Part shown: positions 3,835-64,000 of the stretch, piece by piece
Layout: each line of letters opens with the position of its first letter
Numbering within the stretch: the first letter of the stretch is position 1
From: an uncultured Methanosarcinales archaeon
GTDB lineage: Archaea; Nanobdellota; Nanobdellia; Woesearchaeales; CAZOXR01
Assembly: GCA_964566535.1 (NCBI GenBank)
Contig: CAZMIO010000003.1
Location: 89,153 to 153,152, forward strand
Reading direction: 5' to 3'
DNA: 64,000 nt
Translations under genes and position numbers: made by a program
Notes under the pieces: generated by a model
The model's input: only the letters and a program-made list of their open reading frames with translations
Told to the model about the DNA's origin: nothing
Database searches by the model: none

Positions 3835-3880
3835 TTTATTTTCAAAAGGTTTAAATACACATTCTCCAAAGAACTATCTT

Positions 3881-19936: not shown

Positions 19937-20361
19937 AGGCAAGAATAATCCCAATGCCGCCGAGGGGGAGCGTAGGTGAAGATTACACTCAAGTTGGTGG
20001 TCCACCTTATTTATTATTTGAAGGCGAAGCTGAAGGATATGATATAGTTCTTGGTTATAGGATCATTCCCGGAGACTCACAGCAGGTTGCACACAGAGTC
20101 CAATCTGCAGATCTTAGATTAGAGACCGATATCAGAGCAATACCTACAGGAGACATTTCAATCGCAGCAGAATATGAAAGCGAGAGTACTGGTGATTTAG
20201 TAGAAGCAGTAATTAGGGAGTCTAGAAACTTTGCTAAATTAGGAAATGCTGACTACTATTTTGTTGATTTGACTAGTCCAGGAATTATAACTTCACCCGT
20301 GCCACCATTCCGAGGGAGACCATATGTTGTTGTTAGACCTTTATTATTTAGAGGGATATAA
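19933..20361 (+). CDS. hypothetical protein (non-host composition), translationally coupled to ispG
   Basis: An ATGA overlap joins it to the ispG stop. It is 142 aa, Gly/Pro/Arg/Asp/Glu-rich, with 2 Lys. Confidence 0.35.
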   Translation: MKARIIPMPPRGSVGEDYTQVGGPPYLLFEGEAEGYDIVLGYRIIPGDSQQVAHRVQSADLRLETDIRAIPTGDISIAAEYESESTGDLVEAVIRESRNFAKLGNADYYFVDLTSPGIITSPVPPFRGRPYVVVRPLLFRGI

Positions 20362-25634: not shown

Positions 25635-26258
25635 ATGGCAGTCATATCTTCAGAACAATATCAAGCAAGACTTCTAGCTACCTTGGCACATTTACAAGAT
25701 TCGGATATAAAAGATCAAATAGGCCCTAAATTAGGAGGGCGGGGAGGTACAGCTTTTTATCCTATGGGTGATGTACAATTGCCTGGAGAGGATCCATTAT
25801 ACTTAGGTCTTAAATTAAGAAGTAATTCTGAAGAAGAAATCGCAAAAGAATTACAACTCTTTGAATTCTTGTACACCTTAGGCTGCCCAGTACCTTATTT
25901 AAGTGTTGTTGTAACCAATGGGGAAGATGTAGGAATATTAACAGAAGACCTTACACGTAATGGGGAACTAGACTTAACAGAGATTATCCTACCTCACTTT
26001 ATCCCTGACTCATTGGACAACTGTGCAGAACTAAGGGAACAATACGGAGGTTCTTGTATGGATATAAACCAAACAGGCATTACAGCTTATGGAAAATCTT
26101 ACTTCGTTGCTCATGAACCATACACAACAGGGATAGGAAGAGGCTGTTTTCTTGATATAGAACATTTTGAATTCCCACCAGACATAAAAGAACTAGAACA
26201 ACAAGTAAAACAAGAAGCACCAAAGTATCTCAGAGAACCATTATTATTAAGGGTATAA
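25635..26258 (+). CDS. hypothetical protein (non-host composition)
   Basis: It is 207 aa, Gly/Leu/Glu/Pro-rich with few Lys. Confidence 0.35.
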   Translation: MAVISSEQYQARLLATLAHLQDSDIKDQIGPKLGGRGGTAFYPMGDVQLPGEDPLYLGLKLRSNSEEEIAKELQLFEFLYTLGCPVPYLSVVVTNGEDVGILTEDLTRNGELDLTEIILPHFIPDSLDNCAELREQYGGSCMDINQTGITAYGKSYFVAHEPYTTGIGRGCFLDIEHFEFPPDIKELEQQVKQEAPKYLREPLLLRV

Positions 26259-34555: not shown

Positions 34556-37500
34556 GGATGTAGCTAACATCATCACAATTCCAATACAAAAGAATGGAGT
34601 TCCAGCTACTATCCAGGTTATTAACCAAACAGTAGCAGATACAGCATCTACTGCAATAACCAACATCTCAAACACAGCAGCAGATGCAGTAATCACCGTT
34701 TCAAACACAGCAGCAGATGTAGCAGTTAATACAACTAAAGCAGCAACAGTTCTATTAGGAATGGATTTCGGGAACCTAGATGGAAAAGCAGTAGCAATCA
34801 TTGGAGCAGGAATAGCAGTTGCAGCAGCAGGAATTGCATCAGCAATCGGAGCAGGAATTGTTGGTTCTACTGGAGCAAGAGAATCTGCAGAGGATCCAAA
34901 AAGATTTTCACAATCATTACTATTCCAAGCCCTACCTCAAACTCAGGGAATTTATGGTTTTTTAATAGCAATCCTAATCATGTTAGGCGCAGGAGTAATA
35001 GGCCCTGCAAAAGAAATAACTTTATCTCAAGGACTTGGCGCCCTAGGAGCTGGGTTAGCAGTTGGACTTGCAGCAGTATCAGCAATCGGTCAAGGGTTAG
35101 CCGCATCTGCTGGATTAGGAGCAACAGCAAGAGACAAAAAGATGTTCGGAAAATCAATCCTATTCTCAGTACTTCCAGAAACACAAGCACTATACGGATT
35201 CCTTGTAGCTATCCTTATATTAGTAGGATTCGGACTTTTCGGAACTGCACCAGTAGACATACCAATCGCAGCTGGTTGGGCAGCAGTTGGAGCAGGTCTT
35301 GCAATAGGTCTTGCAGGTATCAGTGCAATCGGTCAGGGAATCGCTGCAGCAGGAAGCATTGGGGCAGTCTTAGAAAAAAGCAAGGCATTTGGTAAATCAG
35401 TTATATTCGCAGTACTCCCAGAAACACAAGCCCTATACGGATTCATAATCGCAATCTTAATCCTCATTGGATTCGGAATCCTAGGAACAGCAACTACAGC
35501 ACTTTCATTTGGAGCAGCACTATTCACAATTGCAGCAGGATTAAGTGTTGGTCTTGCAGCAGTATCGGCAATCGGTCAGGGAATCGCAGCATCTTCAGGG
35601 GTAAATGCAGTAGCCTCAAATGACAAATCATTCGGAAAATCAATCCTATTCTCAGTACTCCCAGAAACACAAGCACTATACGGCTTTTTAATTGCCATCC
35701 TTCTTCTAGTTGGAGCAGGAATAATTGGAGCTGCAAAAGCAGGCATAACTACCCCAATAGGAGTCATTGCAATCGGTGCAGGACTTGCAGCAGGTATTGC
35801 AGGTATCAGTGCAATCGGTCAGGGAATCGCAGCCAGCGCAGGAATTAATGCAGTAAGTCAAAAACCAAAATCATTCGGAAAAGCTATTCTTTTCAGTGTC
35901 CTCCCAGAAACACAAGCACTATACGGCTTCCTAATAGCTATCCTCTTATTAGTTGGAGGGGGAATATTAGGAACAGCAAAGCTTGGAATTGAAATTCACG
36001 TTGGATTAATAGCAATCGGAGCAGGCCTTGCAACAGGTCTTGCAGCAATCTCAGCAGTAGGTCAGGGAATCGCAGCCTCATCAGGAATAGCAACAGTAGC
36101 TAAAGACGAAAAATCATTCGGAAAATCAATCCTATTCAGCGTCTTACCAGAAACACAAGCACTATACGGCTTCCTAATAGCAATCTTATTAATGGTAGGC
36201 GGAGGATTACTAGGTGCAATCAAATCAGGATTAAATATATCAACAGGACTTATTGCAATCGGTGCAGGCTTAGCAACTGGTCTTGCAGCAGTATCAGCAA
36301 TCGGTCAGGGAATCGCAGCCTCATCAGGCATTAACACAGTTTCAAAAAATCCAAAATCATTCGGAAAATCAATCCTATTCTCAGTACTTCCAGAAACACA
36401 AGCCCTATACGGCTTCCTAATAGCAATCCTACTAATGGTAGGCGGAGGAATAGTTGGAGCAACAACAACTGGATTATCATCCGGAATTGGATTAATCGCA
36501 GTTGGATGTGGTATAGCAGTTGGATTTGCAGCAGTCTCAGCAGTAGGTCAGGGAATCGCAGCCAGCGCAGGAATCAATGCAGTAAACGAAAACCCAAAAT
36601 CATTCGGAAAATCAATCCTATTCTCAGTCTTACCAGAAACACAAGCACTATACGGCTTCCTAATAGCAATCCTACTAATGGTAGGCGGAGGATTAGTTGG
36701 AATAGTCAAACAAGGAATAGACCTCCCTATAGGATTAGTGGCAATCGGAGCTGCCATTGCAACAGGAATTGCAGGTATCAGCGCAGTAGGTCAGGGAATG
36801 GCAGCATCATCTGGAATAGCAACAGTAGCTAAAGACGAAAAATCATTCGGAAAATCAATCCTATTCTCAGTCTTACCAGAAACACAAGCACTATACGGCT
36901 TCCTAATAGCAATCCTACTAATGGTAGGGGGAGGATTATTGGGTGTAATCAAAGAAGGCATAAGCATAGCTATTGGTTTTGTGGCAATCGGTGCAGGACT
37001 TGCAGCAGGTTTAGCAGCAGTCTCAGCAGTTGGTCAAGGAATCGCGGCCTCATCCGGTATTAATACAGTTTCAAGAAATCCAAAATCATTCGGAAAATCA
37101 ATCCTATTCAGCGTCTTACCAGAAACACAAGCACTATACGGCTTCCTAATCGCTGTACTTCTACTTGTAGGCGGAGGAATAATCGGAGTAATAAATCCTA
37201 ATATCAACTTACCAGTTGGATTAATAGCAATCGGTGCAGGACTTGCAACAGGTTTAGCAGCAGTCTCAGCAGTAGGTCAGGGAATGGCAGCAGCTGCAGG
37301 AGCAGAAGCAGCATCTGAAGATCCAAAATCATTCGGAAAATCAATCCTATTCAGCGTCTTACCAGAAACACAAGCACTATACGGCTTCCTAATAGCAATC
37401 CTACTAGTAGCTTCAGGAGGAATACTGGGAGCAGCAAAACCAGGCCTTACAGTACCGATTGGACTTGTAGCAGTTGGTGCAGGAGTATCTATCGGAGTTG

Positions 37501-37916
37501 CATGTTTGTCTGCTCTTGGTCAAGGAATCGCAGCATCCTCCGGTATCGGATCTATACTTGAAAGAAAGAATATTTTTGGAAAGTCAGTATTGTTCTCAGT
37601 ACTTCCAGAAACACAAGCTCTTTACGGAATTATCATATCCATACTTCTTTTGACAGGAGTTGGACTTTTAGGTACAATAAAATCAGGGATAACAATTACA
37701 CAAGGTATTGGTGGAATTGGAATTGGAATAGCAATGGGTCTAGCCGCAGTTAGTGCAGTAGGTCAAGGAATTGTGTCTGCATCTTCAATAGGTGCTGCAG
37801 TAAGAGACCAAAAATCAACTGGAAAAAGCCTAGTATTAAGTGTTATTCCAGAAACATACGCAATATTTGGATTATTAATATCAATACTATTATTGATAGG
37901 ATTAAAATTTATATGA
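34545..37916 (+). CDS. atpK: A-type ATP synthase proteolipid (c subunit), 13 fused hairpins in one 1123-aa polypeptide
   Basis: Thirteen tandem units of about 81 aa have the form GAGLA.GLAA.SA.GQG.A...KSFGKSILFSVLPETQALYGFLIAILL. Twelve carry the E of P-E-T-Q, and the first has P-Q-T-Q. The start is uncertain, either M at 34545 or MDFGNLD at 34758. Confidence 0.85.
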   Translation: MTIEDVANIITIPIQKNGVPATIQVINQTVADTASTAITNISNTAADAVITVSNTAADVAVNTTKAATVLLGMDFGNLDGKAVAIIGAGIAVAAAGIASAIGAGIVGSTGARESAEDPKRFSQSLLFQALPQTQGIYGFLIAILIMLGAGVIGPAKEITLSQGLGALGAGLAVGLAAVSAIGQGLAASAGLGATARDKKMFGKSILFSVLPETQALYGFLVAILILVGFGLFGTAPVDIPIAAGWAAVGAGLAIGLAGISAIGQGIAAAGSIGAVLEKSKAFGKSVIFAVLPETQALYGFIIAILILIGFGILGTATTALSFGAALFTIAAGLSVGLAAVSAIGQGIAASSGVNAVASNDKSFGKSILFSVLPETQALYGFLIAILLLVGAGIIGAAKAGITTPIGVIAIGAGLAAGIAGISAIGQGIAASAGINAVSQKPKSFGKAILFSVLPETQALYGFLIAILLLVGGGILGTAKLGIEIHVGLIAIGAGLATGLAAISAVGQGIAASSGIATVAKDEKSFGKSILFSVLPETQALYGFLIAILLMVGGGLLGAIKSGLNISTGLIAIGAGLATGLAAVSAIGQGIAASSGINTVSKNPKSFGKSILFSVLPETQALYGFLIAILLMVGGGIVGATTTGLSSGIGLIAVGCGIAVGFAAVSAVGQGIAASAGINAVNENPKSFGKSILFSVLPETQALYGFLIAILLMVGGGLVGIVKQGIDLPIGLVAIGAAIATGIAGISAVGQGMAASSGIATVAKDEKSFGKSILFSVLPETQALYGFLIAILLMVGGGLLGVIKEGISIAIGFVAIGAGLAAGLAAVSAVGQGIAASSGINTVSRNPKSFGKSILFSVLPETQALYGFLIAVLLLVGGGIIGVINPNINLPVGLIAIGAGLATGLAAVSAVGQGMAAAAGAEAASEDPKSFGKSILFSVLPETQALYGFLIAILLVASGGILGAAKPGLTVPIGLVAVGAGVSIGVACLSALGQGIAASSGIGSILERKNIFGKSVLFSVLPETQALYGIIISILLLTGVGLLGTIKSGITITQGIGGIGIGIAMGLAAVSAVGQGIVSASSIGAAVRDQKSTGKSLVLSVIPETYAIFGLLISILLLIGLKFI
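34830..37900 (+). repeat. intragenic tandem repeat with a period of about 243 nt and about 13 copies, encoding the c-subunit hairpins
   Basis: The string ccagaaacacaag recurs near 35175, 35418, 35661, 35904, 36148, 36390, 36634, 36877, 37120, 37360 and 37605. The central copies are nearly identical over more than 100 nt. Confidence 0.9.
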
Positions 37917-43850: not shown

Positions 43851-44171
43851 ATGAATGAGGCAAAAAAATACTCAGTAATCGGAGGTTTAGCCGGAGTAGT
43901 AACTTTGGCCATACTAGATTTTACAATAGTTGGGAACGGATTAGATATGGATACAATCAGAACATTTGGTGCTAGTAGCATACTTGCAGCTTATACACTT
44001 GGCTCGGCGGTTGGAGGAGCAGCTTCAACCTACAGAGAACAAGCAAGAATTAGAGAATCAGGGCAAGGTATAGGCACATATTCACGATCAGATGTTCCTT
44101 TTATACTTGGAAATTCAACTCTATCGCTGCTTGGAAGTTATGCTACATATGCTAATAAATTTGGATTATAA
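43851..44171 (+). CDS. small Gly/Ala/Ser-rich membrane protein (non-host composition)
   Basis: It is 106 aa with 3 Lys and two hydrophobic segments. Confidence 0.3.
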   Translation: MNEAKKYSVIGGLAGVVTLAILDFTIVGNGLDMDTIRTFGASSILAAYTLGSAVGGAASTYREQARIRESGQGIGTYSRSDVPFILGNSTLSLLGSYATYANKFGL

Positions 44172-49892: not shown

Positions 49893-49972
49893 ACATGCCT
49901 CTTTTTTAAAGTTTGTCTAAAAATAGGTTAATTCAAAATATTTTTATACAAACTACCATTCCTCAACATAAA

Positions 49973-50296
49973 ATGCCAGATGCTAGTAGAAGACAAGTTA
50001 TTGATGACCTATTTAGTGAAAGAGCAGTAAGTGGTACAGAATTAATAACAGCTCTTCTATCAGACGCTGTAGGATTAATACGTCCGCCAGGAAATACAAG
50101 GGCAGCTGCTGTAGTAGCGTATGATAATCAACCAAAAGGAATAGCCATCCTTGCATCAACAAGAGAGGGATTAGAAGGAAGATTACCTAAAACTTTCCCA
50201 AGTAGAGCAAGAGAAGTCCGTGTCTACTATGGCCATGGTTCAGATGATTACGTCACATTCACAAACCAAGGCGGAAGATATCAATTAAGCCAGTAA
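49973..50296 (+). CDS. hypothetical protein (non-host composition)
   Basis: It is about 107 aa from MPDASRRQ and is Arg/Gly/Ala-rich. Confidence 0.3.
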   Translation: MPDASRRQVIDDLFSERAVSGTELITALLSDAVGLIRPPGNTRAAAVVAYDNQPKGIAILASTREGLEGRLPKTFPSRAREVRVYYGHGSDDYVTFTNQGGRYQLSQ

Positions 50297-50359: not shown

Positions 50360-50707
50360 CTATCGTCCTTGAACAATACCGTATAATGCTACAATTATTC
50401 CATCTTCTCTATCTTGAACTGCTTTAACATCTTCATCACTCACACCCTCAGGTACTGGCCTATACGGTAACATAAAAGTATAATCTCGACTACCATCACC
50501 AGAAGTACCAGCACTTGCAAATTGATAAGGAAAATGATCCTGAGCAACCGGAATACCATCCTCTCCTTGACGTACAGTTATCCTTACTGAATGTAAAATA
50601 GGTTCTAACTCATCAACAAAACCCCTCATTCTTTCTTCTGGAACAGGACCAATCTCAATCATCCTTTGTCCCATAACATTCATATCAAGAGGTTGTTGTG
50701 TTGCCAT
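50360..50707 (-). CDS. hypothetical protein (non-host composition)
   Basis: It is 115 aa, Pro/Gly/Asp/Glu/Arg-rich, with about 1 Lys. Confidence 0.3.
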   Translation of the reverse strand: MATQQPLDMNVMGQRMIEIGPVPEERMRGFVDELEPILHSVRITVRQGEDGIPVAQDHFPYQFASAGTSGDGSRDYTFMLPYRPVPEGVSDEDVKAVQDREDGIIVALYGIVQGR

Positions 50708-50756: not shown

Positions 50757-51344
50757 CTACTTCTGATACCATTCCCTCTCAGGCACTTCAACTTTCTGTA
50801 TCTCTTTATCCTTAACCTTCTTACCTTCCCTAATAATGTACTTCCCTAATTCTCCAACAACAGTTGAATCAGCAGGAACATCCTTAATGATAATAGCCCC
50901 AGCACCAATCTTAGAATTATCTCCAACTTTAGAAGGACCTAAAATTTTACAACCAACACCCAAAACAACATGATTCCCAATGGTAGGGTGCCTTTTCTCT
51001 CCTTTCTTATCAGTCCACCAACCATGACCACCTAAAGTAACTTCATGATACATCATAACATCATTACCAATTTCAGCAGTTTCTCCAATAACAATACCCA
51101 TTCCATGATCAATAAAGAATCTCTTCCCAATCTTCGCTCCAGGATGAATCTCAATACCAGTAAAAAATCTACCTAACTGAGAAATCAAACGAGGAACAAA
51201 AGGAATATTAAGCTTAAAAAGAAAGTGGGCCACCCTATGTAAAAGAATAGCATGAACCCCTTGGTAGAGGAATACCTCTAAAAAATTAATCCCTTTCTTT
51301 AATGCAGGATCCTTTCTATAAGCCGTCCTTATTGTATCAAACAT
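50757..51344 (-). CDS. cysE: serine O-acetyltransferase (hexapeptide-repeat)
   Basis: It has the N-terminal SAT helical domain and the hexapeptide region ([31 protein letters not shown]). Confidence 0.8.
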
Positions 51345-52265
51345 CTATTCTTCTCCAAACAAAGGAGTGCTTAAATACCTTTCGCCGTGGTCAGGTAAAA
51401 CAACAACAACTTTCTTACCCTTACCAAGTTTATTAGCAACTTGCAAAGCAGCCCAAGCAGCAGCACCAGAAGAAATTCCAACAAAAAGCCCTTCTTCTTT
51501 AGCTAACTTCCTAGCTGTTTCAAAAGCATCCTCATTACTTACCTTAACAATTTCATCATACACTTCAGTATTCAAAACAGTAGGAACAAAACCAGCTCCA
51601 ATACCTTGAATCTTATGCGGTCCAGGATCTCCACCGGATAAAACAGCAGAATCAACCGGCTCAACAGCAACTACATGAACTTTCTTCCCCTTCTCCTTTA
51701 GCAATTCACCAACACCAGTTATTGTTCCACCAGTTCCAATTCCAGATACAAAAGCATCCAGTTCAGGAACCTGCTCTATAACTTCAACTGCGGTAGTCTT
51801 CCTATGCACTTCAGGATTTGCAGGATTATTAAACTGCTGCGGTTGAACCCATCCTTTCTCTTCAGATAATTCTTTAGCCTTATCAATAGCACCTTTCATC
51901 CCTTTAGTACCATCGGTCAGAACAAGTTCAGCTCCAAAAGCCTTAAGAACCTTCCTCCGCTCAACACTCATAGTCTCAGGCATAGTTAATACCATCTTAT
52001 AACCCTTAACAGCTGCAACAAAAGCTAGTGCAATACCAGTATTGCCAGATGTTGGCTCAACTAAAGTATCTCCTGCCTTAAGCTTACCTTCTTTTTCAGC
52101 AGCCTCAATCATACTTAACCCAATTCTATCTTTTACAGAACTCAAAGGATTAAACATCTCAAGCTTTGCATATATTTCAGCAGAATCCTCTCCACCTAAC
52201 TTATTTAACTTAACAACTGGTGTATCACCAATCAATTCCAATACATTATTTACAACTTTTGCCAT
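51345..52265 (-). CDS. cysK: cysteine synthase / O-acetylserine sulfhydrylase (PLP fold type II)
   Basis: [15 protein letters not shown] is the PLP-lysine motif. [10 protein letters not shown] and [10 protein letters not shown] match the family. Confidence 0.9.
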
Positions 52266-52279
52266 TTTACATCCTCCTT

Positions 52280-52516
52280 CTATATGTTATATTCAATCTT
52301 ACCTTTTCCAAATTCAATTTTAGCCCATGCCCTCTCATGAGCATAGTAAGTGAACAATTTTATAATTGTATCAATAGAACCAATAGTTAAAGCTAAAGCT
52401 ACTTCTTTTGTAAGAAAGTAAGCAACCAAAGAAGTGATTACAACAGCTATTACTCTCCATGAGATAGCCTTCACAATACTTCTTTTATGGGTTTCGCCCA
52501 TTTTACTTTTCCTCAA
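52280..52516 (-). CDS. small 2-TM membrane protein (DUF2061-like?)
   Basis: It is 78 aa and includes [25 protein letters not shown]. Confidence 0.35.
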
Positions 52517-52803: not shown

Positions 52804-53673
52804 TTATCCTAAATAGAATGTACTTCCCTTATAACCTTCCTGAAGGCCACTAACGGGAGTCATTCTAACAGCAACATTACCATCAGGCATAAGTGTTTGA
52901 AGTTTCCCAGTTAAATCTGCCTTATCAATAGGCCCTTTTAACGCAGACATATGTTGCAAAACTCCTAATCCAAAATTCCTTCCACCTTCTCTTAATTCTA
53001 AATACACTGGCATAAACATCAATTCAACTAGGTCAAGAGGACTTCCATCTTCCATCGCTAGATGTTCAACACCAATATCAGTTCCTTCAAAACGTGAAGC
53101 AAAATCACCTGCATCAAAGTCTACAGTATTTCTTTGAAAATCTCCAAAGTATGCCCTAAGTCCTCTTTCAAAATCAACATCTCCATCTAATTGATTTACT
53201 CTTAATCCATCACTATTAGAAAAACCAACCTTCCCTGTTACATAGCCAGCTCCATCATTAGTCCCAAACAATGCTTTTAATCCATATTTAATCTCAGTTG
53301 CTACACGAACCCCTCCCCTATCAACATGTTTACGGGGCGCATCTGGACTAATTGATAGCATATAGAGATCTCCTTCCATTCTACGTCCTAAAAGCGCGTG
53401 AGCCCCAACTAAATAACTATCTAATGATGTTCGATCTTCTGGAAAATGAATCTCTGCTGTTGCTGTATGTGATTTAACATAAGGAACCCTCTTAAAAGCG
53501 CGTGAGCCCCAACCTCCAGTTGTATCTCTTTCCCCAATTACCACAGAATTACCAATAGAAGCCAATACATGAGGTTGACCTTGAGCTAAAACCCTTAAAT
53601 CTTGTTTTAAACCAAGAGCACCATAAACATCTTCTGGTGTAACTCCTCTTAAAGAACCCTCATCTGGTGCCAT
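52804..53673 (-). CDS. hypothetical beta-rich protein (non-host composition)
   Basis: It is 289 aa, Gly/Asp/Arg-rich, with alternating hydrophobic patterns (VRVATEIKYGLKALF, YVTGKVGF) suggestive of beta-strands. Confidence 0.35.
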   Translation of the reverse strand: MAPDEGSLRGVTPEDVYGALGLKQDLRVLAQGQPHVLASIGNSVVIGERDTTGGWGSRAFKRVPYVKSHTATAEIHFPEDRTSLDSYLVGAHALLGRRMEGDLYMLSISPDAPRKHVDRGGVRVATEIKYGLKALFGTNDGAGYVTGKVGFSNSDGLRVNQLDGDVDFERGLRAYFGDFQRNTVDFDAGDFASRFEGTDIGVEHLAMEDGSPLDLVELMFMPVYLELREGGRNFGLGVLQHMSALKGPIDKADLTGKLQTLMPDGNVAVRMTPVSGLQEGYKGSTFYLG

Positions 53674-53776
53674 ATCACTAACCTAAATAAGAACTCATAT
53701 AAAAATAATTTCTTTATGAAAATAACCTCATAGTAATCATACAATCAATAAATTTATACAAATTATCAGCCATAAC

Positions 53777-54187
53777 ATGAAACCTATGTACGCGTTAATG
53801 GGTGTAGCTGCTCTATACGCTGCTGCTACAATAGGATGTTCTCAAGGTCCTGAATATAGTAATATAAAAGCTCTAGGTCCTACACTCCCCAGAGGTGCTA
53901 TTAATGCAATAGTAGATGCTAGAGAAACAGTAAAAGGAAGAGATGGAGTAGTAGAAGATCGAGAAACTACAGTGGATGATTTTGGTGGAGTAAGAGACCA
54001 ATATCCTAACATTGGTAACAGAGCTACAGCACTTCTAGCAGCTTCTAATACATCGGCAAAAGATGTAATGGGAATTTATGATTGGGTAAGAGAACAAAAT
54101 CCTGACTATACCCATGAACAAGCAGCAGCTGGTCCTCCACTTGCAGAAGTTAGGATCCGTGCAGAAAGCGTAGTCGATACTTTATAA
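53777..54187 (+). CDS. putative secreted or lipoprotein (non-host composition)
   Basis: The N-terminal MKPMYALMGVAALYAAATIGCSQG resembles a signal peptide with a lipobox-like Cys. It is 136 aa. Confidence 0.35.
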   Translation: MKPMYALMGVAALYAAATIGCSQGPEYSNIKALGPTLPRGAINAIVDARETVKGRDGVVEDRETTVDDFGGVRDQYPNIGNRATALLAASNTSAKDVMGIYDWVREQNPDYTHEQAAAGPPLAEVRIRAESVVDTL

Positions 54188-54258
54188 TATTTGTAAATAT
54201 AACTTCAATTCTAGCCTTAACTGGATATGTGATACTATCTAAAGAAAACAGAATTTTT

Positions 54259-55464
54259 TTAATACTTAGAATTTCGTTGAATCATTCTTAATCTCCAACC
54301 AGGATCTTCTAGAGCCCGAGCATATACCTTTTCAAGATCTTCCATTATCCCATTTGGAGTATCCGGATCAACACCAAACCTATCAATCACTCTCCTTCTC
54401 TCATCTGGATGGAAAAGAAAAACTTGTCTATCAACTAAATCCACAAGCCAATCGTAAAAAAATGTTGGCTCTCCTAAGATCCTATCAATCCCTCTCAGTA
54501 TAACTGCACCTTTCTTTGCTAATCCATTTGGTGTATTAATTGGTTTTCCACCTAATCCAGCAATATTCCTCATCATAATAGTTAATTCTCTCTGACTTGG
54601 TGCATCACTTTGAGCAACAACATATGTATCTTGATATTGTTCTTCACTTCCAATTGCGCTAAGAATAACATCCGATACTTTATCAACATGGATATAAGGA
54701 CTTCTACCACTACCTTCTCCTGGAATAAAAGCTCTCATTGCATGTTGTTTAATTTTTACTAGCCCACCCTTTACTGAAGAACTATCTGTTAGAGGTATAA
54801 AACCATACAATAACATATCTAAAATTGGTGATTCTGAATCTGGTGTTGAATAAACTATTAGTAACCTTAAAATTAAGTGATTATCAGGTAATCCAATTCT
54901 AATTCTTTCTTCTGCCCTAAGCTTAGACTTACTGTAAGGCATAATTGGCCCTTCATCTATCCCTAAATCTACAGAACGACCATACCTAAGATAATGCTCT
55001 TCTGTTAATCCATCCCTAGTAAAGGCAGAGTAATCTTCATCTCTAACATCTGTTACTGACATTGGTTCATATACAGTAGTCCCACTAGTTTGTATAAAAA
55101 GGGGTTTATCACCCTCACATACTCTTTCTAAGCTTGTAGCAAATTTATCAATTGGACCAACATTTACTGATTGATATTCATCAAAATACTTATCTTTAAA
55201 TGAAATAAATGTAGCAGCACTTACTATTGCACGAATATCATGATTCCCAAAAAGTCTTTCTAAAAAAGCATCATAATCTTCTTGAGGATTTCTTAAATCA
55301 AATATTTCCTCTTTATACAAGGGGTTGGCAATATCTTGAGGATTTCTAGTTACCCCAACTACTTCATAACCTTCATTTAATAGCCTTTGAACTAAGTTTG
55401 ACCCAACAAACCCAGAACAGCCTGTAAGTACAACAGTTCCTTTATTTTCTTCTAATCTATTCAT
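54259..55464 (-). CDS. extended SDR NAD-dependent epimerase/dehydratase-like protein with a C-terminal extension (non-host composition)
   Basis: It has the Rossmann motif TGCSGFVGSNL and the catalytic YSKSK (YxxxK). It is 401 aa. Confidence 0.55.
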   Translation of the reverse strand: MNRLEENKGTVVLTGCSGFVGSNLVQRLLNEGYEVVGVTRNPQDIANPLYKEEIFDLRNPQEDYDAFLERLFGNHDIRAIVSAATFISFKDKYFDEYQSVNVGPIDKFATSLERVCEGDKPLFIQTSGTTVYEPMSVTDVRDEDYSAFTRDGLTEEHYLRYGRSVDLGIDEGPIMPYSKSKLRAEERIRIGLPDNHLILRLLIVYSTPDSESPILDMLLYGFIPLTDSSSVKGGLVKIKQHAMRAFIPGEGSGRSPYIHVDKVSDVILSAIGSEEQYQDTYVVAQSDAPSQRELTIMMRNIAGLGGKPINTPNGLAKKGAVILRGIDRILGEPTFFYDWLVDLVDRQVFLFHPDERRRVIDRFGVDPDTPNGIMEDLEKVYARALEDPGWRLRMIQRNSKY

Positions 55465-55588
55465 TTTAAATTAACACTTAAGTTAAAGCAGTGGTTAAAA
55501 TGAATGGTATTAAAAATCTTCCTATATTTATCACTATTAAGAAGTCATTTTCATAATATTTTTAAAGCCTTTACCGTTATCCAGCCCC

Positions 55589-56986
55589 ATGGAGCTTAAA
55601 TCTGGAGATAATGTTGTAATAGCTGGTGGTGGACCTGCTGGTAGTTTAGCAGCTATCATTCTCATGGATCATGCTAGTACAATGGACCTTCCCCTAGAAG
55701 TAACAGTCCTCGAAAAAAAAGATTTTGATAAACAAGGTCATGGAGGATGCAATTCTTGTGCTGGAGTAGTTTCTACCCAATTAGTTGATGATTTATCCAA
55801 AATGGGGATCCACATCCCTGAACATGTAATTCAAAGATATATTGACGGTTACACTGTCGAAACACCTAGGGAATCTTTATCTATGACAGATGCTAATGAG
55901 CATATTGTTACAGTATTTAGAGGAAATGGACCTGGACGTGCAAGTTATGACGAATCTGTAAGTTTTGATGGATTTTCAAAAAGTGAAGCAGAAAAAAGAG
56001 GAGCTCAGTTCGTAAATACAACTGTAACCTCAATAACACCTCCCAAATCTTTAGAAGAAAGAGTAGCAATTACTACAAAGGTTTCAGCAAAAGAAGGTGA
56101 AGTTGTTTATGAAGCTGACCTTCTTATTGGAGCTCTTGGAATGCCTGGAGTAAAAATCTTTGAAGATGCAGGTTTTGGTTACAAGAAAGCAAGAACTGTT
56201 AGACTTGCTCAAACTGAAATTGCAATGGATCCAGAAACAATAGGGGATATATTTGGGAAACACGTTCATGTTTACTACCTTGATATTCCTGGAATCTGGC
56301 ATGCTGCAATTACTCCAAAAAGAGAATACATAACTGTCTCAATTTTAAGTTCAGGCAATTCATCCAGAGAAACCTCTCGCTCCTTAAGACAAAAATTAGA
56401 TCAATTTCTTAATCATGATGCAATAACAAGGAAAGTCACAGATAGACTACCAGACGATCAAGCAATTGCCGATGCTTTAGAACGGGGGATGGTACTAGAA
56501 CCAAGTTGTTTTTGTGCTCCAGAAATGCCCTACAAAGATTCAGTTAATCCTTATGGGGATAGAATTGCCATTATAGGGGATGCAGCATATTCAAGATTAT
56601 TCAAAAACGGCGTTGAGTCCGCTTTTACAACAGCTGAAATGGCAGTAAAAGCAGCACTAGATCATGGAGTATCAAGAGAAGAATTAAAAGCGCATTATCA
56701 TGAACCAGCAGCTAGGAGATTTAATGATGATAACCGATATGGTAGGGCCCTTTTTAGAATTGGGGGTTACTCATCAAGAGTTAGAGGGATGGTTGATTCC
56801 CACCTTAGGGTTGCTCAAACTGACTCAGATAATGGAAGAAGATTAAAAGACATGTACTGGTCAATGTCTACTGCTGGTAAGCCCTATAGAGATATTTTTG
56901 CAGATGTATTACACCCGGGTCTTTTAATGGAAATAGGCATTGCCTCAGTAAGAGGTGTAGTACCAGCTTATGTTAGAAGAAGATAA
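55589..56986 (+). CDS. FAD-dependent oxidoreductase (geranylgeranyl-reductase / flavin monooxygenase-like; non-host composition)
   Basis: The N-terminal VVIAGGGPAGSLAA is a dinucleotide-binding motif. It is 465 aa. Confidence 0.5.
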   Translation: MELKSGDNVVIAGGGPAGSLAAIILMDHASTMDLPLEVTVLEKKDFDKQGHGGCNSCAGVVSTQLVDDLSKMGIHIPEHVIQRYIDGYTVETPRESLSMTDANEHIVTVFRGNGPGRASYDESVSFDGFSKSEAEKRGAQFVNTTVTSITPPKSLEERVAITTKVSAKEGEVVYEADLLIGALGMPGVKIFEDAGFGYKKARTVRLAQTEIAMDPETIGDIFGKHVHVYYLDIPGIWHAAITPKREYITVSILSSGNSSRETSRSLRQKLDQFLNHDAITRKVTDRLPDDQAIADALERGMVLEPSCFCAPEMPYKDSVNPYGDRIAIIGDAAYSRLFKNGVESAFTTAEMAVKAALDHGVSREELKAHYHEPAARRFNDDNRYGRALFRIGGYSSRVRGMVDSHLRVAQTDSDNGRRLKDMYWSMSTAGKPYRDIFADVLHPGLLMEIGIASVRGVVPAYVRRR

Positions 56987-57072: not shown

Positions 57073-57618
57073 ATGGAAAACAAAAAAAATTACATCAAAG
57101 GAATGGTTTTTGCAGCGTTATTCGCAGCATTAACAGCAGCAGTTTCTCCAATCAAAATTCCGTTAGGATTCACACCAGTCCCAATCACATTACAAACATT
57201 GATGGTACTTTTAGCAGGAGCGCTACTAGGAGCTAACCTAGGAGCTTTATCTCAATTTCTATATGTATTAGTTGGAGCATTAGGATTACCAGTATTTGCA
57301 GGTGGCGGCTCAGGTTTTGGAGCTTTATTCGGACCAACCGGCGGTTATCTTTTCGGTTTCATTGCAGCAGCTTATGCAGTAGGAAAACTAGTTGAAAAAA
57401 CAAAAAAACCTTCTCTAGTACAAATAATCATAGCAATGGTTGTTGGATCATTAGTAATATATGTGTTCGGGGTAACTGGAGCAATAGTCGTAACAGGAAG
57501 ACCTTTAACTGAAATTCTAATTGGATGGGTTCTACCCTTCCTTATTGGAGATACAGTAAAACTAATTGCAGCAGCACTAATAGCAAGAAAAGTAGATATG
57601 AGTAGATATCTCCAATAA
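57073..57618 (+). CDS. bioY: biotin ECF transporter S component
   Basis: It is about 180 aa with six TM helices and a Gly-rich core (GGSGFGALFGPTGGYLFGF) typical of BioY. Confidence 0.8.
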   Translation: MENKKNYIKGMVFAALFAALTAAVSPIKIPLGFTPVPITLQTLMVLLAGALLGANLGALSQFLYVLVGALGLPVFAGGGSGFGALFGPTGGYLFGFIAAAYAVGKLVEKTKKPSLVQIIIAMVVGSLVIYVFGVTGAIVVTGRPLTEILIGWVLPFLIGDTVKLIAAALIARKVDMSRYLQ

Positions 57619-57631
57619 TTCTACTAATAGA

Positions 57632-58330
57632 ATGATACAAATATCCAATATCAGCTATAAGTATGAAGACGCATTAATTCTAAAAGATATTAACCTAAAT
57701 ATAAAAGAAAAAGATTTCTTAGCAATCATAGGCCACAACGGCTCAGGTAAAACAACCCTAATAAAACACATCAACGGACTATTAACACCATTAAAAGGAA
57801 CCGTAACAGTAGATAACCTAAACACAAAAAACAACGATTGGGAAATCAAACAAAAAGTGGGAATAGTCTTCCAAAACCCAGAAGACCAACTAATTAGTTC
57901 TATTGTTGAAGAAGACATTGCATTTGGACTAGAAAATCTAAACATACCTTCAAATGAAATTCAAGATAAAGTAAAAAACATCCTAAAAAAGCTAAACATA
58001 GAACACTTAGCCAAAAAAAACGTAAATAATCTTTCTTTTGGTCAAAAACAACTCGTAGCACTAGCAGGAGTCTTAGTGATGAGGCCAAAATACATAATCT
58101 TTGACGAACCAACAACCGTTCTTGACCCCAAAAACAAATCAAACATCTTAAAAACAATGGACGAGTTAAACAAAGAAGGAATTACAATCATCTTAATCAC
58201 AAACAACTTAGCTGACATTGAAAAATACGTAAAAGATATCGTTCTACTTAAAAAAGGAGAAATAATCTTCAACAACAAAAAAGAAAAGCTTACCAAGGAT
58301 ATACTAAAAGAGGCTGATATGCATGAATAG
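57632..58330 (+). CDS. ECF transporter ATPase component (EcfA/CbiO)
   Basis: It has Walker A GHNGSGKTT, the ABC signature LSFGQKQ and Walker B IIFDEPT. Confidence 0.8.
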   Translation: MIQISNISYKYEDALILKDINLNIKEKDFLAIIGHNGSGKTTLIKHINGLLTPLKGTVTVDNLNTKNNDWEIKQKVGIVFQNPEDQLISSIVEEDIAFGLENLNIPSNEIQDKVKNILKKLNIEHLAKKNVNNLSFGQKQLVALAGVLVMRPKYIIFDEPTTVLDPKNKSNILKTMDELNKEGITIILITNNLADIEKYVKDIVLLKKGEIIFNNKKEKLTKDILKEADMHE

Positions 58331-59042
58331 TCTATTCGGCCAATACCAATACAAAAACACATTCATACATAGATTAGACCCAAGAATAAAAATAATTCTC
58401 GTCTTATTCACAAGTATGTTACTATTCTCATTAAAAACTTACACATCTTTCATTATAATCACTGTTTTAATCTCAACATTGTTAATCATCTCAAAAATAA
58501 ACATAACTACATTACTAAAAAACCTAAGACCGTTCTTATTCTTCTTCACTTTTATTTTCCTAATGTATTTTTTCTTCTCAAGAGAAGAATTAGCTAAAGG
58601 AATATTGACAATCTGGAGATTTGTACTACTTATCCTAACCTCATCAATACTAACATTCACAACCTCCATAAGCAATATGGTCTACGCAATTGAAAAACTA
58701 GGAAGGCCATTAAAAATAATAAAAGTCAGTCCAAGAAACATAGCAGTGATGTTATCAATAACAATAAGATTCATACCATTACTATTCACAGAAGCAAATA
58801 TAGTCAGAGACGCACAAAAATCAAGAGGGGCAGATCTTAAAAAACCAAAACACATCATAGGCTTCGTAAATGCTTTACTAAGAAAAACATTTAATAAAGC
58901 CTCTACTTTAGCAGATTCAATGGAATCAAGATGTTATAGGGATTATAGTTACTCTCATTTTAAAGAATTAAAACTAACAACAAAAGATATCGTATCTTTT
59001 GCCATCATCATAACTTTATTCGGTGCTTTAATATGGGTATAG
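58323..59042 (+). CDS. ECF transporter transmembrane component (EcfT/CbiQ)
   Basis: It is 239 aa and polytopic, with the conserved ARG motif region (AQKSRGAD). It overlaps the ecfA 3' end. Confidence 0.7.
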   Translation: MNSLFGQYQYKNTFIHRLDPRIKIILVLFTSMLLFSLKTYTSFIIITVLISTLLIISKINITTLLKNLRPFLFFFTFIFLMYFFFSREELAKGILTIWRFVLLILTSSILTFTTSISNMVYAIEKLGRPLKIIKVSPRNIAVMLSITIRFIPLLFTEANIVRDAQKSRGADLKKPKHIIGFVNALLRKTFNKASTLADSMESRCYRDYSYSHFKELKLTTKDIVSFAIIITLFGALIWV

Positions 59043-59693: not shown

Positions 59694-60875
59694 ATGGGAA
59701 ACGCTATTTATCTATCAAATAGACATTTTGTACCTGACCACCCCATAGAACAATTAGCAGTTTTAGACAGCCTCAACCTCAGAAAACCAGGCCATGCTGA
59801 ATATTTCATTGAAACTCACTTCGGAGAAAAAGGTGTTTCAACAACTACAGAAAAGAGTACCAGAACAAGAGAAGAAATTGCTGCCATCTACTGCGGTGAC
59901 CCAGATATAAGAAATATTTACTGGCGCTATCTTAATCTAACATTAGCACGAGCCAAAGACGAAGTAGCAGAACAACTACAACCCCACCAAAGAAAATTAT
60001 ACTTTGATCGTGAACGAGACGCTGCAAGAGAAAGGGAATCGGAAGGTCCATCTGTACAAAGACTAAATGATTTAGTTGAAAATACACTTGGGGGATATCT
60101 ACCAAGAACTGAATTAGAAGAAAGGACTGAATCTAGAGAGTTTAGAGCATGGACATATGAAGCTGCCAGGCCCTACCTCCCAGGGGATTATTATGAATTT
60201 TGGGATGACAAACAGGGTTATAAGGATAAACTCAATGCCATTGACTTAAATGATCCAGATGAACTATATCTATTTGTCAGGAACCTGTTAGGCATAACAG
60301 TAACTAGAGCAGAAATAGATCACTTAATGACTGATGATACAAGAGATAAAATACTAGACTTAACTGCAGAATGTAGAACTGATTTCGTAGAATTTCAAAA
60401 ATACCAAACAGTCGATGATGATGGGTCCTTTATATCTCAAATGAGAAAATGGAATCCTTATGCATTTTGGGACGGGAATGTTTGGGATAGGTTAGATGGC
60501 AGACATATAGATTCAGAAGGGGATGTTCGAAAAGCATCAGCCATAATGAGAGGTTTATTTCGTTTTCATGGTTCCAACAGAAAATTGCTTTATAAAGATC
60601 CACGGAACGGAGATATGAGAGTTAGAGTAGAAAAATACCCTCAAATGAAAAATCTCAGAGAAGCTAACGAACTTTGTGATTACACTGATTACCAATTAGA
60701 GGTTATTTTAGAAGCCCCAATTAGAGGAATAGATAAACTATTCTTAATAGTTGATTTTGACAAGGAAATGGAGGAAAGAGATCAACAAGAGATACTAAAT
60801 AACCTCCATGCACTATATGCAAGAGACTTTGAATTAAGAAGGAGAAGTTTTAAGCAAAGAAGAAGACCATTGTAA
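59694..60875 (+). CDS. hypothetical protein (non-host composition)
   Basis: It is 393 aa, Arg/Asp/Glu-rich with low Lys. No motif was recognised. Confidence 0.35.
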   Translation: MGNAIYLSNRHFVPDHPIEQLAVLDSLNLRKPGHAEYFIETHFGEKGVSTTTEKSTRTREEIAAIYCGDPDIRNIYWRYLNLTLARAKDEVAEQLQPHQRKLYFDRERDAARERESEGPSVQRLNDLVENTLGGYLPRTELEERTESREFRAWTYEAARPYLPGDYYEFWDDKQGYKDKLNAIDLNDPDELYLFVRNLLGITVTRAEIDHLMTDDTRDKILDLTAECRTDFVEFQKYQTVDDDGSFISQMRKWNPYAFWDGNVWDRLDGRHIDSEGDVRKASAIMRGLFRFHGSNRKLLYKDPRNGDMRVRVEKYPQMKNLREANELCDYTDYQLEVILEAPIRGIDKLFLIVDFDKEMEERDQQEILNNLHALYARDFELRRRSFKQRRRPL

Positions 60876-62043: not shown

Positions 62044-63315
62044 CTACAAACCCCAAGGCTTCAAAACCCTTCTCAAAGTTTCCTTACCTTGCATATAAGC
62101 TAAGAAAACCCCATAATTAGTAATTGGAACTCCAACCGACTCCAAATCACGAAGCCGAGCAGCAAGCTTCTGACTATCTATCATACACCCACCACAATGA
62201 ATTATTAATTTATATTTAGAAATATCTTTCTTATCTCTAAACTCCCTCCCAAATGCATACTCCACTTCCACCCCAGAATATTTCTTCTTAATAAAGTTAG
62301 GTATCTGCACCGTTCCAATATCTTCAGCAATCCTAGAATGGTTGCAAGCCTCCGTAATCAATATCTTATCTCCCTCACATAAATCATCCATCGCCTTGAT
62401 TCCATCAGCAAACAACGTAAGCTTCCCCTTACTCATAAAGTTAATCATCATAATAGAAAAAGTAGTAACATCATACTCGGGAGGCGTCCAAGGATCAATA
62501 ATATCAATTGCTTGTGAATCAGTAACTATACACTTAATCTTCTTCTCCTTCAAACCATCAAGAACCTTAAGATACCTCTCTTTCTCTAAAACATCTCCTG
62601 CACGAGCCTTACCCAAATCCATCCTAAATGAAACAGGATAAGCAAAGTTCCGAGTAATATACTCCTCAGCCATCAATTGAGGTCTCAAGTATCTCCCAGG
62701 CGGAGTCTCTGCATCCATAGGAATATTCAACAAATAGTATTCATCCCTCACAACAAAAGGAAGTAATTCCAATTTCTTATTCTTAGATGTAAAATTCTCA
62801 AGAATAAAATTCAATAACCGAGCTCTATCATTTTCATCAACAGCTTTTAATTTTATTTTTTTTATAAAGTTATTTTCAATGATATTTTTTCCAATGGAAT
62901 TTAAGTCAATTTCATTATCATTAAAAATATTATAAACAATAAATATTTGCTTATCATATTCTCTAGCCTGAGAAATAATTCCATTCTCAACCCCAAAATC
63001 AGAATCACTAGGATTTACCACCAAAAGCACTAAATCACACTCTTTAAGGTCATTCTCAGCCTTCTTCCTTTTCTTCTCACCTAATTCTCCACTTTCATCC
63101 ATCCCAGCAGTATCAAATAACTTTACAGGACCCATTCCATGAATCTCACATAAAGTAATTTTAGTATCAGCAGTCGTCCCAGGCGTAACATCAACAATAG
63201 AACATTCCTGCTGAGTCAAAAGATTCATCAAACTACTTTTACCAGAATTAACCTTCCCAAATATCCCAATATTATCTCTTTGGATCACCATAACCATCCC
63301 CCATTCTCCTACCAA
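62044..63315 (-). CDS. hydF: [FeFe]-hydrogenase maturase GTPase HydF
   Basis: It has the N-terminal GTPase motifs (GKVNSGKSSLMN, DTAG). The C-terminal CNH...(46 aa)...HCGGC matches the HydF CxHx44-53HCxxC [4Fe-4S] motif. Confidence 0.7.
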   Translation of the reverse strand: MVGEWGMVMVIQRDNIGIFGKVNSGKSSLMNLLTQQECSIVDVTPGTTADTKITLCEIHGMGPVKLFDTAGMDESGELGEKKRKKAENDLKECDLVLLVVNPSDSDFGVENGIISQAREYDKQIFIVYNIFNDNEIDLNSIGKNIIENNFIKKIKLKAVDENDRARLLNFILENFTSKNKKLELLPFVVRDEYYLLNIPMDAETPPGRYLRPQLMAEEYITRNFAYPVSFRMDLGKARAGDVLEKERYLKVLDGLKEKKIKCIVTDSQAIDIIDPWTPPEYDVTTFSIMMINFMSKGKLTLFADGIKAMDDLCEGDKILITEACNHSRIAEDIGTVQIPNFIKKKYSGVEVEYAFGREFRDKKDISKYKLIIHCGGCMIDSQKLAARLRDLESVGVPITNYGVFLAYMQGKETLRRVLKPWGL

Positions 63316-64000
63316 CCGACCTCACAACTCTCGTAACACAACCAGCACAATCAATAGGATTCTCATAAATGCAAACTTTGTCAGGATACAACTGATAAAA
63401 TTCCCTATATTTCATTGGAGTAATATTCGGCATCAATAAATTAGCACCAGACTGCAATGCCTTCTCCCTACCATCGCTAGGATTCAAAGTTTGCAAAGCA
63501 GTTGTAGCAGAAATAAAAATATCCTTACATACCAATCTAGTAACAGCAATCATTTTCAAACTCATATCAAAACTCCCATCCTTCTCTCCAACTAAAGGAG
63601 TTTCAGGATGGCAAATATATGGCCCCATCCCAGCCATGTTAATTCCTAATTCTTCATAAAGCAAAATATCATCAGCTAAATCAGAAACTGTTTGACCAGG
63701 CAACCCAATCATCGGACCAGTTCCAACTTGATAACCAACCTCTTTCAACTTCTTAATCAACAAAAGCCTCTCATCAAAAGAATTCTTAGTAGCAGAACCA
63801 GCAGGATGCAAACTCTCAAACAATTCCTTATTAGAAGTCTCAAACCTTATCAAACATCTTTTAGCACCAGCAGAAAAAAACTTCTTATACTCCTCAACCG
63901 ACCTCTCACCCAAACTCAAAGCAACCCTACAATCACACTTCTCCAAAATCTTCTTAATCAACCCTTCAATCACTTCAGCAGAATAATAATCATCCTCACC
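63272..64000 (-). CDS. hydE: radical-SAM maturase, HydE/BioB-like, 5'-truncated by the window edge
   Basis: The C-terminal two-thirds of a BioB/HydE-type TIM barrel are present (...GYQVGTGPMIGLPGQT...GMGPYICHPETPL). It overlaps the HydF start, and its N-terminal CxxxCxxC lies beyond nt 64000. Confidence 0.55.
   Translation of the reverse strand, partial: GEDDYYSAEVIEGLIKKILEKCDCRVALSLGERSVEEYKKFFSAGAKRCLIRFETSNKELFESLHPAGSATKNSFDERLLLIKKLKEVGYQVGTGPMIGLPGQTVSDLADDILLYEELGINMAGMGPYICHPETPLVGEKDGSFDMSLKMIAVTRLVCKDIFISATTALQTLNPSDGREKALQSGANLLMPNITPMKYREFYQLYPDKVCIYENPIDCAGCVTRVVRSVGRRMGDGYGDPKR

Follow-up and report, generated by a model that had tools for sequence, protein, structure and literature searches.

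Lineage-specific hypothetical proteins and lateral acquisition have been described as typical of Woesearchaeota (PMC8204110). The closest described counterparts of the locus considered here are classical genomic islands and the amelioration model for the genes as a group, and, for their individual products, archaeal lipobox lipoproteins, extended short-chain dehydrogenases/reductases (SDRs), and the geranylgeranyl reductase/FixC fold. The locus is a run of four genes at positions 52804-56986 of a 64-kb stretch of contig CAZMIO010000003.1 from an uncultured marine archaeon of the Woesearchaeota (DPANN); we refer to this whole stretch as the window, and open reading frames (ORFs) are given throughout as maximal ORFs. 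A preliminary description of this DNA listed four ORFs of 289, 136, 401 and 465 residues in alternating orientation, with coordinates that proved exact, and placed them correctly between cysK plus a small membrane gene and a BioY energy-coupling factor (ECF) transporter. It also saw in them an island of atypical composition that could be a module acquired horizontally. On balance, we favour a different reading: the four are independent, lineage-restricted accessory genes and part of a larger, dispersed class numbering at least 12, later-acquired, drawn from an AT-rich pool, and probably weakly expressed. Coordinates and features are given in Table 1.

The four genes belong to a dispersed compositional class

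The four products are rich in arginine, poor in lysine, and acidic. The share of arginine among arginine and lysine residues, R/(R+K), is.59-.69 compared with approximately.2 in the neighbours, and the Arg:Lys counts are 91:55 in the four genes and 36:118 in six flanking genes (Fisher p = 7e-12). Isoelectric points (pI) range from 4.8 to 6.1 against a host median of 7.6. GC content at the first and second codon positions (GC1 and GC2) is high and that at the third (GC3) is very low. Total GC is 0.368 for the four-gene region and 0.358 for the window, hence there is no GC anomaly. The claim of atypical composition therefore stands for Arg/Lys usage, pI and synonymous-site skew, but not for total GC. 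The borders of the altered composition are sharp, lying at cysK/DUF2061 on one side and at BioY on the other.

A sharp change of composition at gene borders is also what an assembly or binning artefact would leave, with foreign DNA mis-joined into a woesearchaeal contig. We give this explanation practically no chance. Both overall GC and GC at 4-fold degenerate sites are the same in the four genes as in the host, and across both borders of the region the window agrees at 99.99-100% identity with contigs from the assemblies of NCBI, ENA, JGI and Logan, with both junctions at 100% identity in each of these sources, including two NCBI metagenome-assembled genomes (MAGs). Since independent assemblies share both junctions at approximately 100% identity, chimerism or a mis-join is excluded. 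Identical proteins occur in the two NCBI MAGs, each labelled 'Candidatus Woesearchaeota archaeon' (GCA_030750365.1 and GCA_030752895.1), in the ENA, JGI and Logan assemblies, and in fragments from the deep chlorophyll maximum (DCM) of Tara Oceans station 137. The remainder of the window is archaeal in character, with an A-type ATPase operon, aIF5B and DUF371.

The same signature recurs in eight further ORFs at six other places in the window, bringing the class to at least 12 genes. The four genes are therefore the largest cluster of a dispersed class rather than a unique island. Within the class, R/(R+K) spans.59-.90, while 52 of the 53 other genes fall between.00 and.45; the outlier, 25635-26258, stands at.50 and is, together with 43851-44171, a weaker case of the signature. 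Class pI values lie between 4.5 and 6.1 with the exception of the ORF at 49913-50296, which has a pI of 9.7. Nearly all window ORFs of at least 100 residues that lack a Pfam match are class members, and nearly all members in turn have no Pfam match; the exceptions, by Pfam or PHROG, are diverged enzymes, namely the SDR and the flavoprotein together with a NUDIX hydrolase and an HD phosphohydrolase. The HD phosphohydrolase assignment concerns the 425-residue protein, which matches phrog_990 weakly over residues 166-206 and no Pfam family at E < 0.01; its LLHDVIEDV sequence is presumably the motif of RelA/SpoT-type HD hydrolases. Paralogy among the class proteins was also considered, and none was found.

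Table 1. Genes of the four-gene region, its flanks, and the other members of the compositional class. Positions are those of the window.
Feature	Position	Strand	Characteristics
Class member, 122-aa ORFan	13987-14355	-	R/(R+K).72; no Pfam match
Class member, 425 aa, HD phosphohydrolase motif LLHDVIEDV	14408-15685	-	R/(R+K).75
Class member, 166-aa NUDIX hydrolase	16409-16909	-	PF00293 at 9e-20; R/(R+K).67
Class member, 142-aa ORFan, start overlaps IspG/GcpE end	19933-20361	+	R/(R+K).86; no Pfam match
Class member, 331-aa ORFan	21710-22705	+	R/(R+K).62; no Pfam match
Class member, 127-aa ORFan, aconitase-cysE gap	49913-50296	+	R/(R+K).75; no Pfam/NCBIfam match
Class member, 115-aa ORFan, aconitase-cysE gap	50360-50707	-	R/(R+K).90; no Pfam/NCBIfam match
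Left flank, host class: cysE, cysK, DUF2061	50757-52516	-	Lys-rich, full strand skew
cysK	51345-52265	-	Left flank
DUF2061 membrane protein, 78 aa	52280-52516	-	Left flank
289-aa protein	52804-53673	-	Maximal ORF; acidic, Gly/Asp-rich, predicted soluble
136-aa protein	53777-54187	+	Maximal ORF; acidic, signal peptide and lipobox-like ATIG-C21
401-aa extended SDR	54259-55464	-	Maximal ORF; PF01370 match
465-aa FAD-dependent PHBH-fold flavoprotein	55589-56986	+	Maximal ORF; GGGPAG, AlphaFold model
Right flank, host class: BioY-EcfA-EcfT	57073-59042	+	Lys-rich, full strand skew
Class member, 393-aa Arg/Asp-rich ORFan past the ECF operon	59694-60875	+	R/(R+K).69; no Pfam/NCBIfam/PHROG match

Synonymous sites of the class lack the full strand asymmetry of the host

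Housekeeping genes of the window share a strong base asymmetry at 4-fold degenerate sites. Read on the + strand, these sites are A.60, C.12, G.04 and T.24 in either gene orientation. Because the composition is the same in both orientations, the asymmetry is linked to the DNA strand and not to transcription or codons, and it is presumably tied to replication. Cumulative GC skew declines over the full 64 kb. The corresponding + strand values for the class, again in both orientations, are A.47, C.12, G.045 and T.37. GC at 4-fold sites is thus equal in class and host, and purines and pyrimidines are nearly balanced in the class, which has little of the pyrimidine-side asymmetry (depletion of T on the + strand) of the host genes. 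The + strand purine fraction is.487 in the four genes and.684 in their six neighbours (p = 4e-11); taken gene by gene across the window, it is.626 ±.08 for the host and.524 ±.04 for the class (Mann-Whitney p = 8e-5).

At 2-fold degenerate sites that are C/T on the + strand, C makes up approximately.54-.60 in the host and.24-.30 in the class, a gap that holds both for NNY codons of + genes and for NNR codons of - genes; for the four genes and their six neighbours, C/(C+T) is.24 and.54, respectively (p = 9e-11). At + strand G/A sites, G/(G+A) is approximately.1 in host and class alike. The class-host odds ratio is 3-4.5 at C/T sites compared with 1.2-1.4 at G/A sites, whatever the codon type. 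What separates class from host is thus tied to the DNA strand and does not depend on the kind of codon, a pattern that rules out codon-level selection and fits a composition that is out of equilibrium. Translational selection for NNC codons was considered separately and ruled out once genes were split by strand, since the excess follows the DNA strand. CpG or other next-base context was likewise set aside, as the class difference persists in every next-base context. The skew of this genome, unusually strong and independent of gene orientation, can serve as an internal, clock-like test that distinguishes long-resident genes from later arrivals, and it sets apart roughly one in five of the window's genes.

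Origin of the class

From these patterns, we infer that the housekeeping genes have been in their chromosomal surroundings for longer and that the class arrived in its own at a later time. The fast G-to-A system would by now have equilibrated in the class, and the C/T and A/T systems would not yet have done so. A likely source would be a pool with AT-rich third positions that are unskewed or averaged over orientations, for example related AT-rich archaea or their mobile elements, and the genes would probably be weakly expressed. Neither the 289-residue protein nor the SDR has a relative that could be detected beyond the species, and both are foreign in composition, which makes a later acquisition plausible. 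The closest relatives of the flavoprotein are only 48-50% identical and occur in unrelated gene contexts.

A donor richer in GC (about 50% GC or more) would give a different history, in which the genes are in mid-amelioration with third positions already driven towards AT and amino acids that are still donor-like. The proteins do resemble those of organisms with 50-60% GC. Among members of the flavoprotein family, R/(R+K) rises with host GC between.30 and.90; the value of.59 in the window copy greatly exceeds the.31-.48 of its closest relatives. Complete decay by G-to-A and C-to-T substitution from an unskewed source of 50-60% GC predicts 4-fold A of approximately.46 and T of approximately.40, and the observed values are.44 and.41. 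The 2-fold sites do not conform: an import from such a donor should approach the.54 of the flanks from above, and C/(C+T) in the four genes lies below it. The GC-rich donor is contradicted on this point, and an AT-rich, unskewed source fits better. Donors 70-85% identical would also be expected, and the best match is 50% for one gene with none for the 289-residue protein or the SDR. We consider a GC-richer donor improbable.

Several observations weigh against later acquisition from an AT-rich pool. The arginine-rich, acidic character of the proteins is not explained by such a source, whereas a GC-rich one would explain the proteins and the 4-fold sites but not the 2-fold C/(C+T) of.24 beside a host value of.54. 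With no donor or relative for the 289-residue protein and the SDR, acquisition is read from composition only. The matches listed in a cysK scan of genome contigs and an EcfT scan of metagenome contigs include no sister genome in which an empty syntenic site could be seen; the EcfT scan gave, among the matches listed, one relative at 29% identity. The preliminary description had proposed a check for flanking direct repeats or tRNA fragments: there are no tRNA genes and no Rfam matches in the 64-kb window, no direct repeats bracketing 52.5-57.1 kb, and no integrase among the annotated neighbours, so that nothing of this kind sits at the region borders. Horizontal acquisition is plausible from foreign composition and restricted distribution, without the usual signs of integration. 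Finally, A/T skew is also weak in the 3.8 kb of intergenic DNA (A.38, T.33), so the strong skew of housekeeping genes may not be purely a neutral equilibrium, and some housekeeping genes, such as 187-654, 3827-5173 and 22818-23360, are themselves weakly skewed.

Part of this evidence is shared by an account without transfer, in which the class consists of native, ancient, fast-evolving and weakly expressed genes whose proteins are shaped by selection and whose synonymous sites reflect the mutation/repair balance of poorly transcribed DNA, or frequent local inversion. The missing donor, the missing mobility signatures and the weak intergenic A/T skew are all consistent with it, as are 4-fold third positions that are as AT-rich in the class as in the host. 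Hypothetical proteins confined to single lineages are, moreover, known to abound in DPANN genomes (PMC8204110). Relaxed constraint is suggested by in-frame indels that vary between assemblies in two members of the class: one affects the SDR (described below), and the other the 393-residue protein, in which approximately 36 nt at 60030-60064 are missing in-frame from a JGI contig that is otherwise 100% identical (L094), yielding a 381-residue variant (P0140). The composition of the proteins runs the other way, since an AT bias should make weakly constrained proteins the richest in Lys, Asn and Ile, and the class is the least rich. The synonymous difference, too, goes with the replication strand, although the genes that show it alternate with fully skewed ones every few kilobases. 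Host genes have no transcription-strand component, which makes a process dependent on expression hard to reconcile with the data. We regard a native origin as a possibility, clearly less probable than later acquisition from an AT-rich pool.

IMG/VR viral contigs contain no relatives of the 289-residue, SDR, 393-residue, 425-residue or flavoprotein sequences, PADLOC gave no match, and PHROG returned only generic enzymes (epimerase, HD hydrolase). A viral or mobile-element origin was rejected on the grounds of the IMG/VR and PADLOC results. There is a slim chance that the class is one coherent flexible pool of marine Woesearchaeota, including host-interaction or 'symbiosis' genes that would move between related cells or unsampled mobile elements and insert in random orientation. 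Were this so, selection with a common cause would lie behind the protein composition, for example because the proteins act extracellularly or within a partner cell, and a single assembly would be enough to recognise the accessory or interaction genome of an uncultured DPANN lineage by R/(R+K) together with the 4-fold purine fraction corrected for strand.

The 289-residue protein is an ORFan without a signal peptide

The first of the four products has no match in Pfam, NCBIfam, PHROG or PADLOC and no relative in a word-index search of 5.8 billion proteins. An exhaustive phmmer search of 1.84 billion representatives finds only the protein itself, making it a strict ORFan. The reading frame is coding-like, with 289 sense codons in a genome of 36% GC and values of.58,.42 and.18 for GC1, GC2 and GC3. 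The protein has a pI of 5.3 and no transmembrane segment, the highest 19-residue Kyte-Doolittle mean being at most 1.02. Its N-terminus, MAPDEGSLRGVTPEDVYG (MAPDEGSLRG), carries charges of +1/-2 in the first 10 residues and no hydrophobic h-region, and the best 10-residue Kyte-Doolittle mean within the first 35 residues is 0.36; by this hydropathy and charge analysis of the maximal ORF, a signal peptide is absent. The AlphaFold model, computed from the single sequence as there are no homologues for an alignment, has a predicted local distance difference test (pLDDT) score of 33.6, too low to be informative. Internal repeats were sought by self-alignment and rejected, with a score of 32 against 32.4 ± 5.1 for shuffled sequences.

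The preliminary description likened this protein to bacterial outer-membrane beta-barrels. The likeness is limited to a glycine-rich sequence, a mild beta-amphipathic pattern, and aromatic residues close to the C-terminal end. For the beta hydrophobic moment, the protein has 1.02 compared with 0.83 ± 0.07 for shuffles, approximately 2.6 standard deviations, so the amphipathic pattern does rise mildly above expectation. The aromatic C-terminal end does not hold: the sequence closes on ...KGSTFYLG, with a terminal glycine instead of an aromatic residue. Unlike such barrels, the protein lacks a signal peptide; its model yields no confident fold, and it comes from an archaeon. Woesearchaeota are not known to have an outer membrane or Omp85/BAM machinery. 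The barrel reading is therefore unsupported, and the hydropathy profile predicts that the product is a soluble cytoplasmic protein.

The gene contains an exact, GC-rich 21-nt repeat, GTTGGGGCTCACGCGCTTTTA on the coding strand, at 53389-53409 and 53493-53513, where none is expected by chance. The two copies are 104 nt apart, so that one is read as GWGSRAFK and the other, in another frame, as VGAHALLG. Amino-acid variation in the protein is confined to K61R and V63A, which both fall at one copy of this repeat; they occur together in one contig of 1.2x coverage (P0001), and V63A occurs alone in a second cluster member (P0126). The repeat has no match in IMG/VR viral contigs.

The 136-residue protein is a candidate lipoprotein

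A signal peptide with a lipobox-like cysteine had been proposed for the second product, and both features are present. The N-terminus, MKPMYALMGVAALYAAATIGC, has a short MKP n-region followed by a 17-residue h-region, MYALMGVAALYAAATIG, with a 10-residue Kyte-Doolittle mean of 1.95, and then ATIG-C21. It fits a permissive PROSITE-style lipobox and is the sole match among the 65 window proteins scanned, a set from which the fused K-subunit gene at 34545-37916 was left out. Under the strict definition, [LVI]-3 [ASTVI]-2 [GAS]-1 C+1 (PMC12462473), the T-I-G-C21 sequence conforms at -2 and -1 and has threonine at -3.

Lipobox proteins are reportedly prevalent in DPANN archaea, and the AliA/AliB lipidation machinery is reported to be present there 'with some gaps' (PMC12462473); the 136-residue protein is ordinary in that respect. 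It resembles the AliA/AliB-dependent archaeal lipoproteins (PMC12462473) in its short positive n-region, its h-region, and the Ile, Gly and Cys at -2, -1 and 21. It differs in having Thr instead of Leu, Val or Ile at -3, and in an acidic mature domain of approximately 115 residues that matches no family library. No match was found in Pfam, NCBIfam, PHROG or PADLOC, the large protein databases not having been searched with this protein, and its 90% cluster contains this species alone. Judged by its signal motif, the product is probably exported, and a lipid would then probably anchor it to the outside of the cytoplasmic membrane.

The 401-residue protein is a highly diverged extended SDR

The preliminary assignment of the third product as an extended SDR of the epimerase/dehydratase kind is borne out. 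PF01370 matches residues 11-138 at 45.4 bits against a cut-off of 20.9 (8.4e-12), covering only model positions 1-125 of 240, and the best full-length match is the nucleotide-sugar epimerase profile phrog_540 (4.4e-13, residues 6-306). The TGxxGxxG motif (TGCSGFVG, 14-21) and the catalytic YxxxK (YSKSK, 177-181) are intact. No NCBIfam equivalog applies (GalE, RmlD, HpnA, YfcH and others), matches scoring 15-34 bits against cut-offs of 207-1509. Matches in the PDB are limited to the Rossmann N-terminus, and no homologue rises above threshold among 5.8e9 proteins.

The protein shares with extended SDRs (PF01370; NADPH-dependent aldehyde reductase, DFR and CCR-like enzymes) the N-terminal Rossmann fold, both motifs, and a profile alignment reaching to approximately residue 306. 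It departs from them in a C-terminal extension of approximately 90 residues and in a polymorphic loop after beta-2 that contains an 18-residue duplication, with RNPQ at 40 and 58 ('RNPQ(D/E)...'). In one ENA assembly, otherwise 100% identical (L003), 54 nt are missing at 55280-55347 between 14-nt direct repeats, TCTTGAGGATTTCT; this removes one copy of the duplication and yields a 383-residue variant (P0132). Matches to aldehyde reductase, DFR and CCR, together with VGVTR after beta-2, hint at the use of NADP(H). With these motifs, the product would be an active-looking, extremely diverged extended SDR that uses NAD(P)(H).

The 465-residue flavoprotein belongs to a widespread family with four invariant cysteines

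The fourth product had been called a flavin adenine dinucleotide (FAD) oxidoreductase, and sequence and model agree. The GxGxxG motif (GGGPAG, 13-18) and the GD motif (IIGDAA, 328-333) are present, and the AlphaFold model (overall pLDDT 89.7) has a two-domain PHBH fold. Foldseek aligns the model with FixC, KMO, squalene epoxidase and the halogenases PltA and Mpy16 at probability 1.0, with TM-scores of 0.57-0.66 and 13-18% identity, and the sequence profile finds FixC and halogenases in the PDB. The best curated family is the geranylgeranyl reductase (GGR) superfamily, with scores far below the cut-offs (TIGR02032, 42.7 against 158.8 bits over residues 9-303; TIGR02023, 42.0 against 343.3).

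There are 179 homologues. One of the three closest comes from a Nanoarchaeia MAG, and the remainder, approximately 29-35% identical, are found in Scalindua and further Planctomycetota, Aminicenantes, Acidobacteriota, Poribacteria and Methanoperedens. The only four cysteines of the protein (C54, C57, C307 and C309) are invariant in 45 aligned homologues and sit in the two least confident loops of the model. Gene neighbourhoods vary, with a paralogue and RNR in the Nanoarchaeia MAG and cytochromes or unrelated genes elsewhere. In Scalindua, the gene and the paralogue that follows it are fused and encode a 907-residue protein.

The protein thus has the GxGxxG and GD motifs and the two-domain fold of the geranylgeranyl reductase, FixC (ETF-QO) and group A monooxygenase and halogenase enzymes. 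Its family is distinguished from them by the four invariant cysteines (CxxC and CxC), and it has no characterised member and no conserved neighbourhood. We assign it as an FAD enzyme with a PHBH fold, from a GGR/FixC-like family that is widespread and uncharacterised. It is most likely a reductase or dehydrogenase acting on a hydrophobic substrate of the isoprenoid or quinone type, and its CxxC and CxC may form a metal or redox centre. With its invariant cysteines and hundreds of members, DPANN among their hosts, the family is a tractable biochemical target.

The four genes do not resemble an envelope-modification module

In the preliminary description, the four genes were proposed to form one horizontally acquired envelope or surface-modification module, with a barrel, a lipoprotein and two sugar-nucleotide or redox enzymes acting together. 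Some observations are in keeping with this: the genes lie side by side and share their composition, a signal peptide with a lipobox is present in one product, and the best full-length match of the SDR is a nucleotide-sugar epimerase profile. The proposed barrel, however, has neither signal peptide nor C-terminal aromatic residue nor a confident barrel model, and the host is archaeal. The alternating orientation implies four separate transcription units, and no glycosyltransferase, flippase, polysaccharide or other envelope gene lies nearby. In five other genomes, among them the Nanoarchaeia MAG, Methanoperedens and Scalindua, homologues of the flavoprotein never adjoin an SDR or either ORFan. 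The same composition is found in unrelated genes, including those for NUDIX and HD hydrolases. A single envelope module is thus very unlikely, and in the reading that we favour the four products would not act as one machine.

Other features of the window

Beyond BioY-EcfA-EcfT lie genes for a TIGR04076 protein and then a DUF1284 protein. On the opposite flank, cysK is 60-70% identical to cysK of Bacillales, Staphylococcus and Omnitrophota, with no closer archaeal relative among the matches listed; the gene was probably acquired from bacteria long ago, yet in composition and skew it is fully of the host type. Bacterial-type genes of the MEP/DOXP route to isoprenoids (DXS, IspG/GcpE and DXR) occur at 16944-19936 and 23750-24880 with class ORFs interleaved. 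Such genes have been reported to be widespread in a clade of Woesearchaeota (PMC8204110). Genes for the [FeFe]-hydrogenase maturases HydF and radical-SAM HydE/HydG lie beside Thi4 at 62044-63973 (-) and beyond, as seen in two contigs (L001 and L094); no hydrogenase structural gene is visible within the window.

The rotor (K/c) subunit of the A-type ATPase is encoded at 34545-37916 (+) as one 1123-residue chain with 13 ATP-synt_C hairpin matches (Pfam, 716 bits). Its composition is 16% Gly, 16% Ala and 13% Ile, and the same full-length call is made in JGI. A single-chain, 13-hairpin rotor of 1021 residues is described for Methanopyrus kandleri in a passage of PMC2359735 that cites Lolkema & Boekema 2003. 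The present chain would seem to be the second such case, this time from a marine DPANN archaeon of low GC. In one NCBI annotation the gene is split (237-residue fragment), so the repeat may be hard to assemble.

Comparison with genomic islands and the amelioration model

As a gene cluster, the region is of little weight: it comprises two orphans, an SDR that has diverged strongly, and a flavoprotein whose family is uncharacterised, and it comes from a phylum in which hypothetical proteins of single lineages and lateral acquisitions are nothing new. A misleading annotation is avoided by the finding that neither the barrel nor the envelope module has support.

Like classical genomic islands and the horizontally acquired genes of the amelioration model, the four genes stand out in composition, are restricted to the lineage and apparently not essential, and have sharp boundaries. 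Unlike such islands, the class is scattered as singletons and pairs among housekeeping genes and comes with no tRNA, integrase or direct repeat. It also departs from the amelioration model in the kind of deviation that it displays: the class differs from the host in amino-acid usage and strand skew, and its total GC is that of the host.

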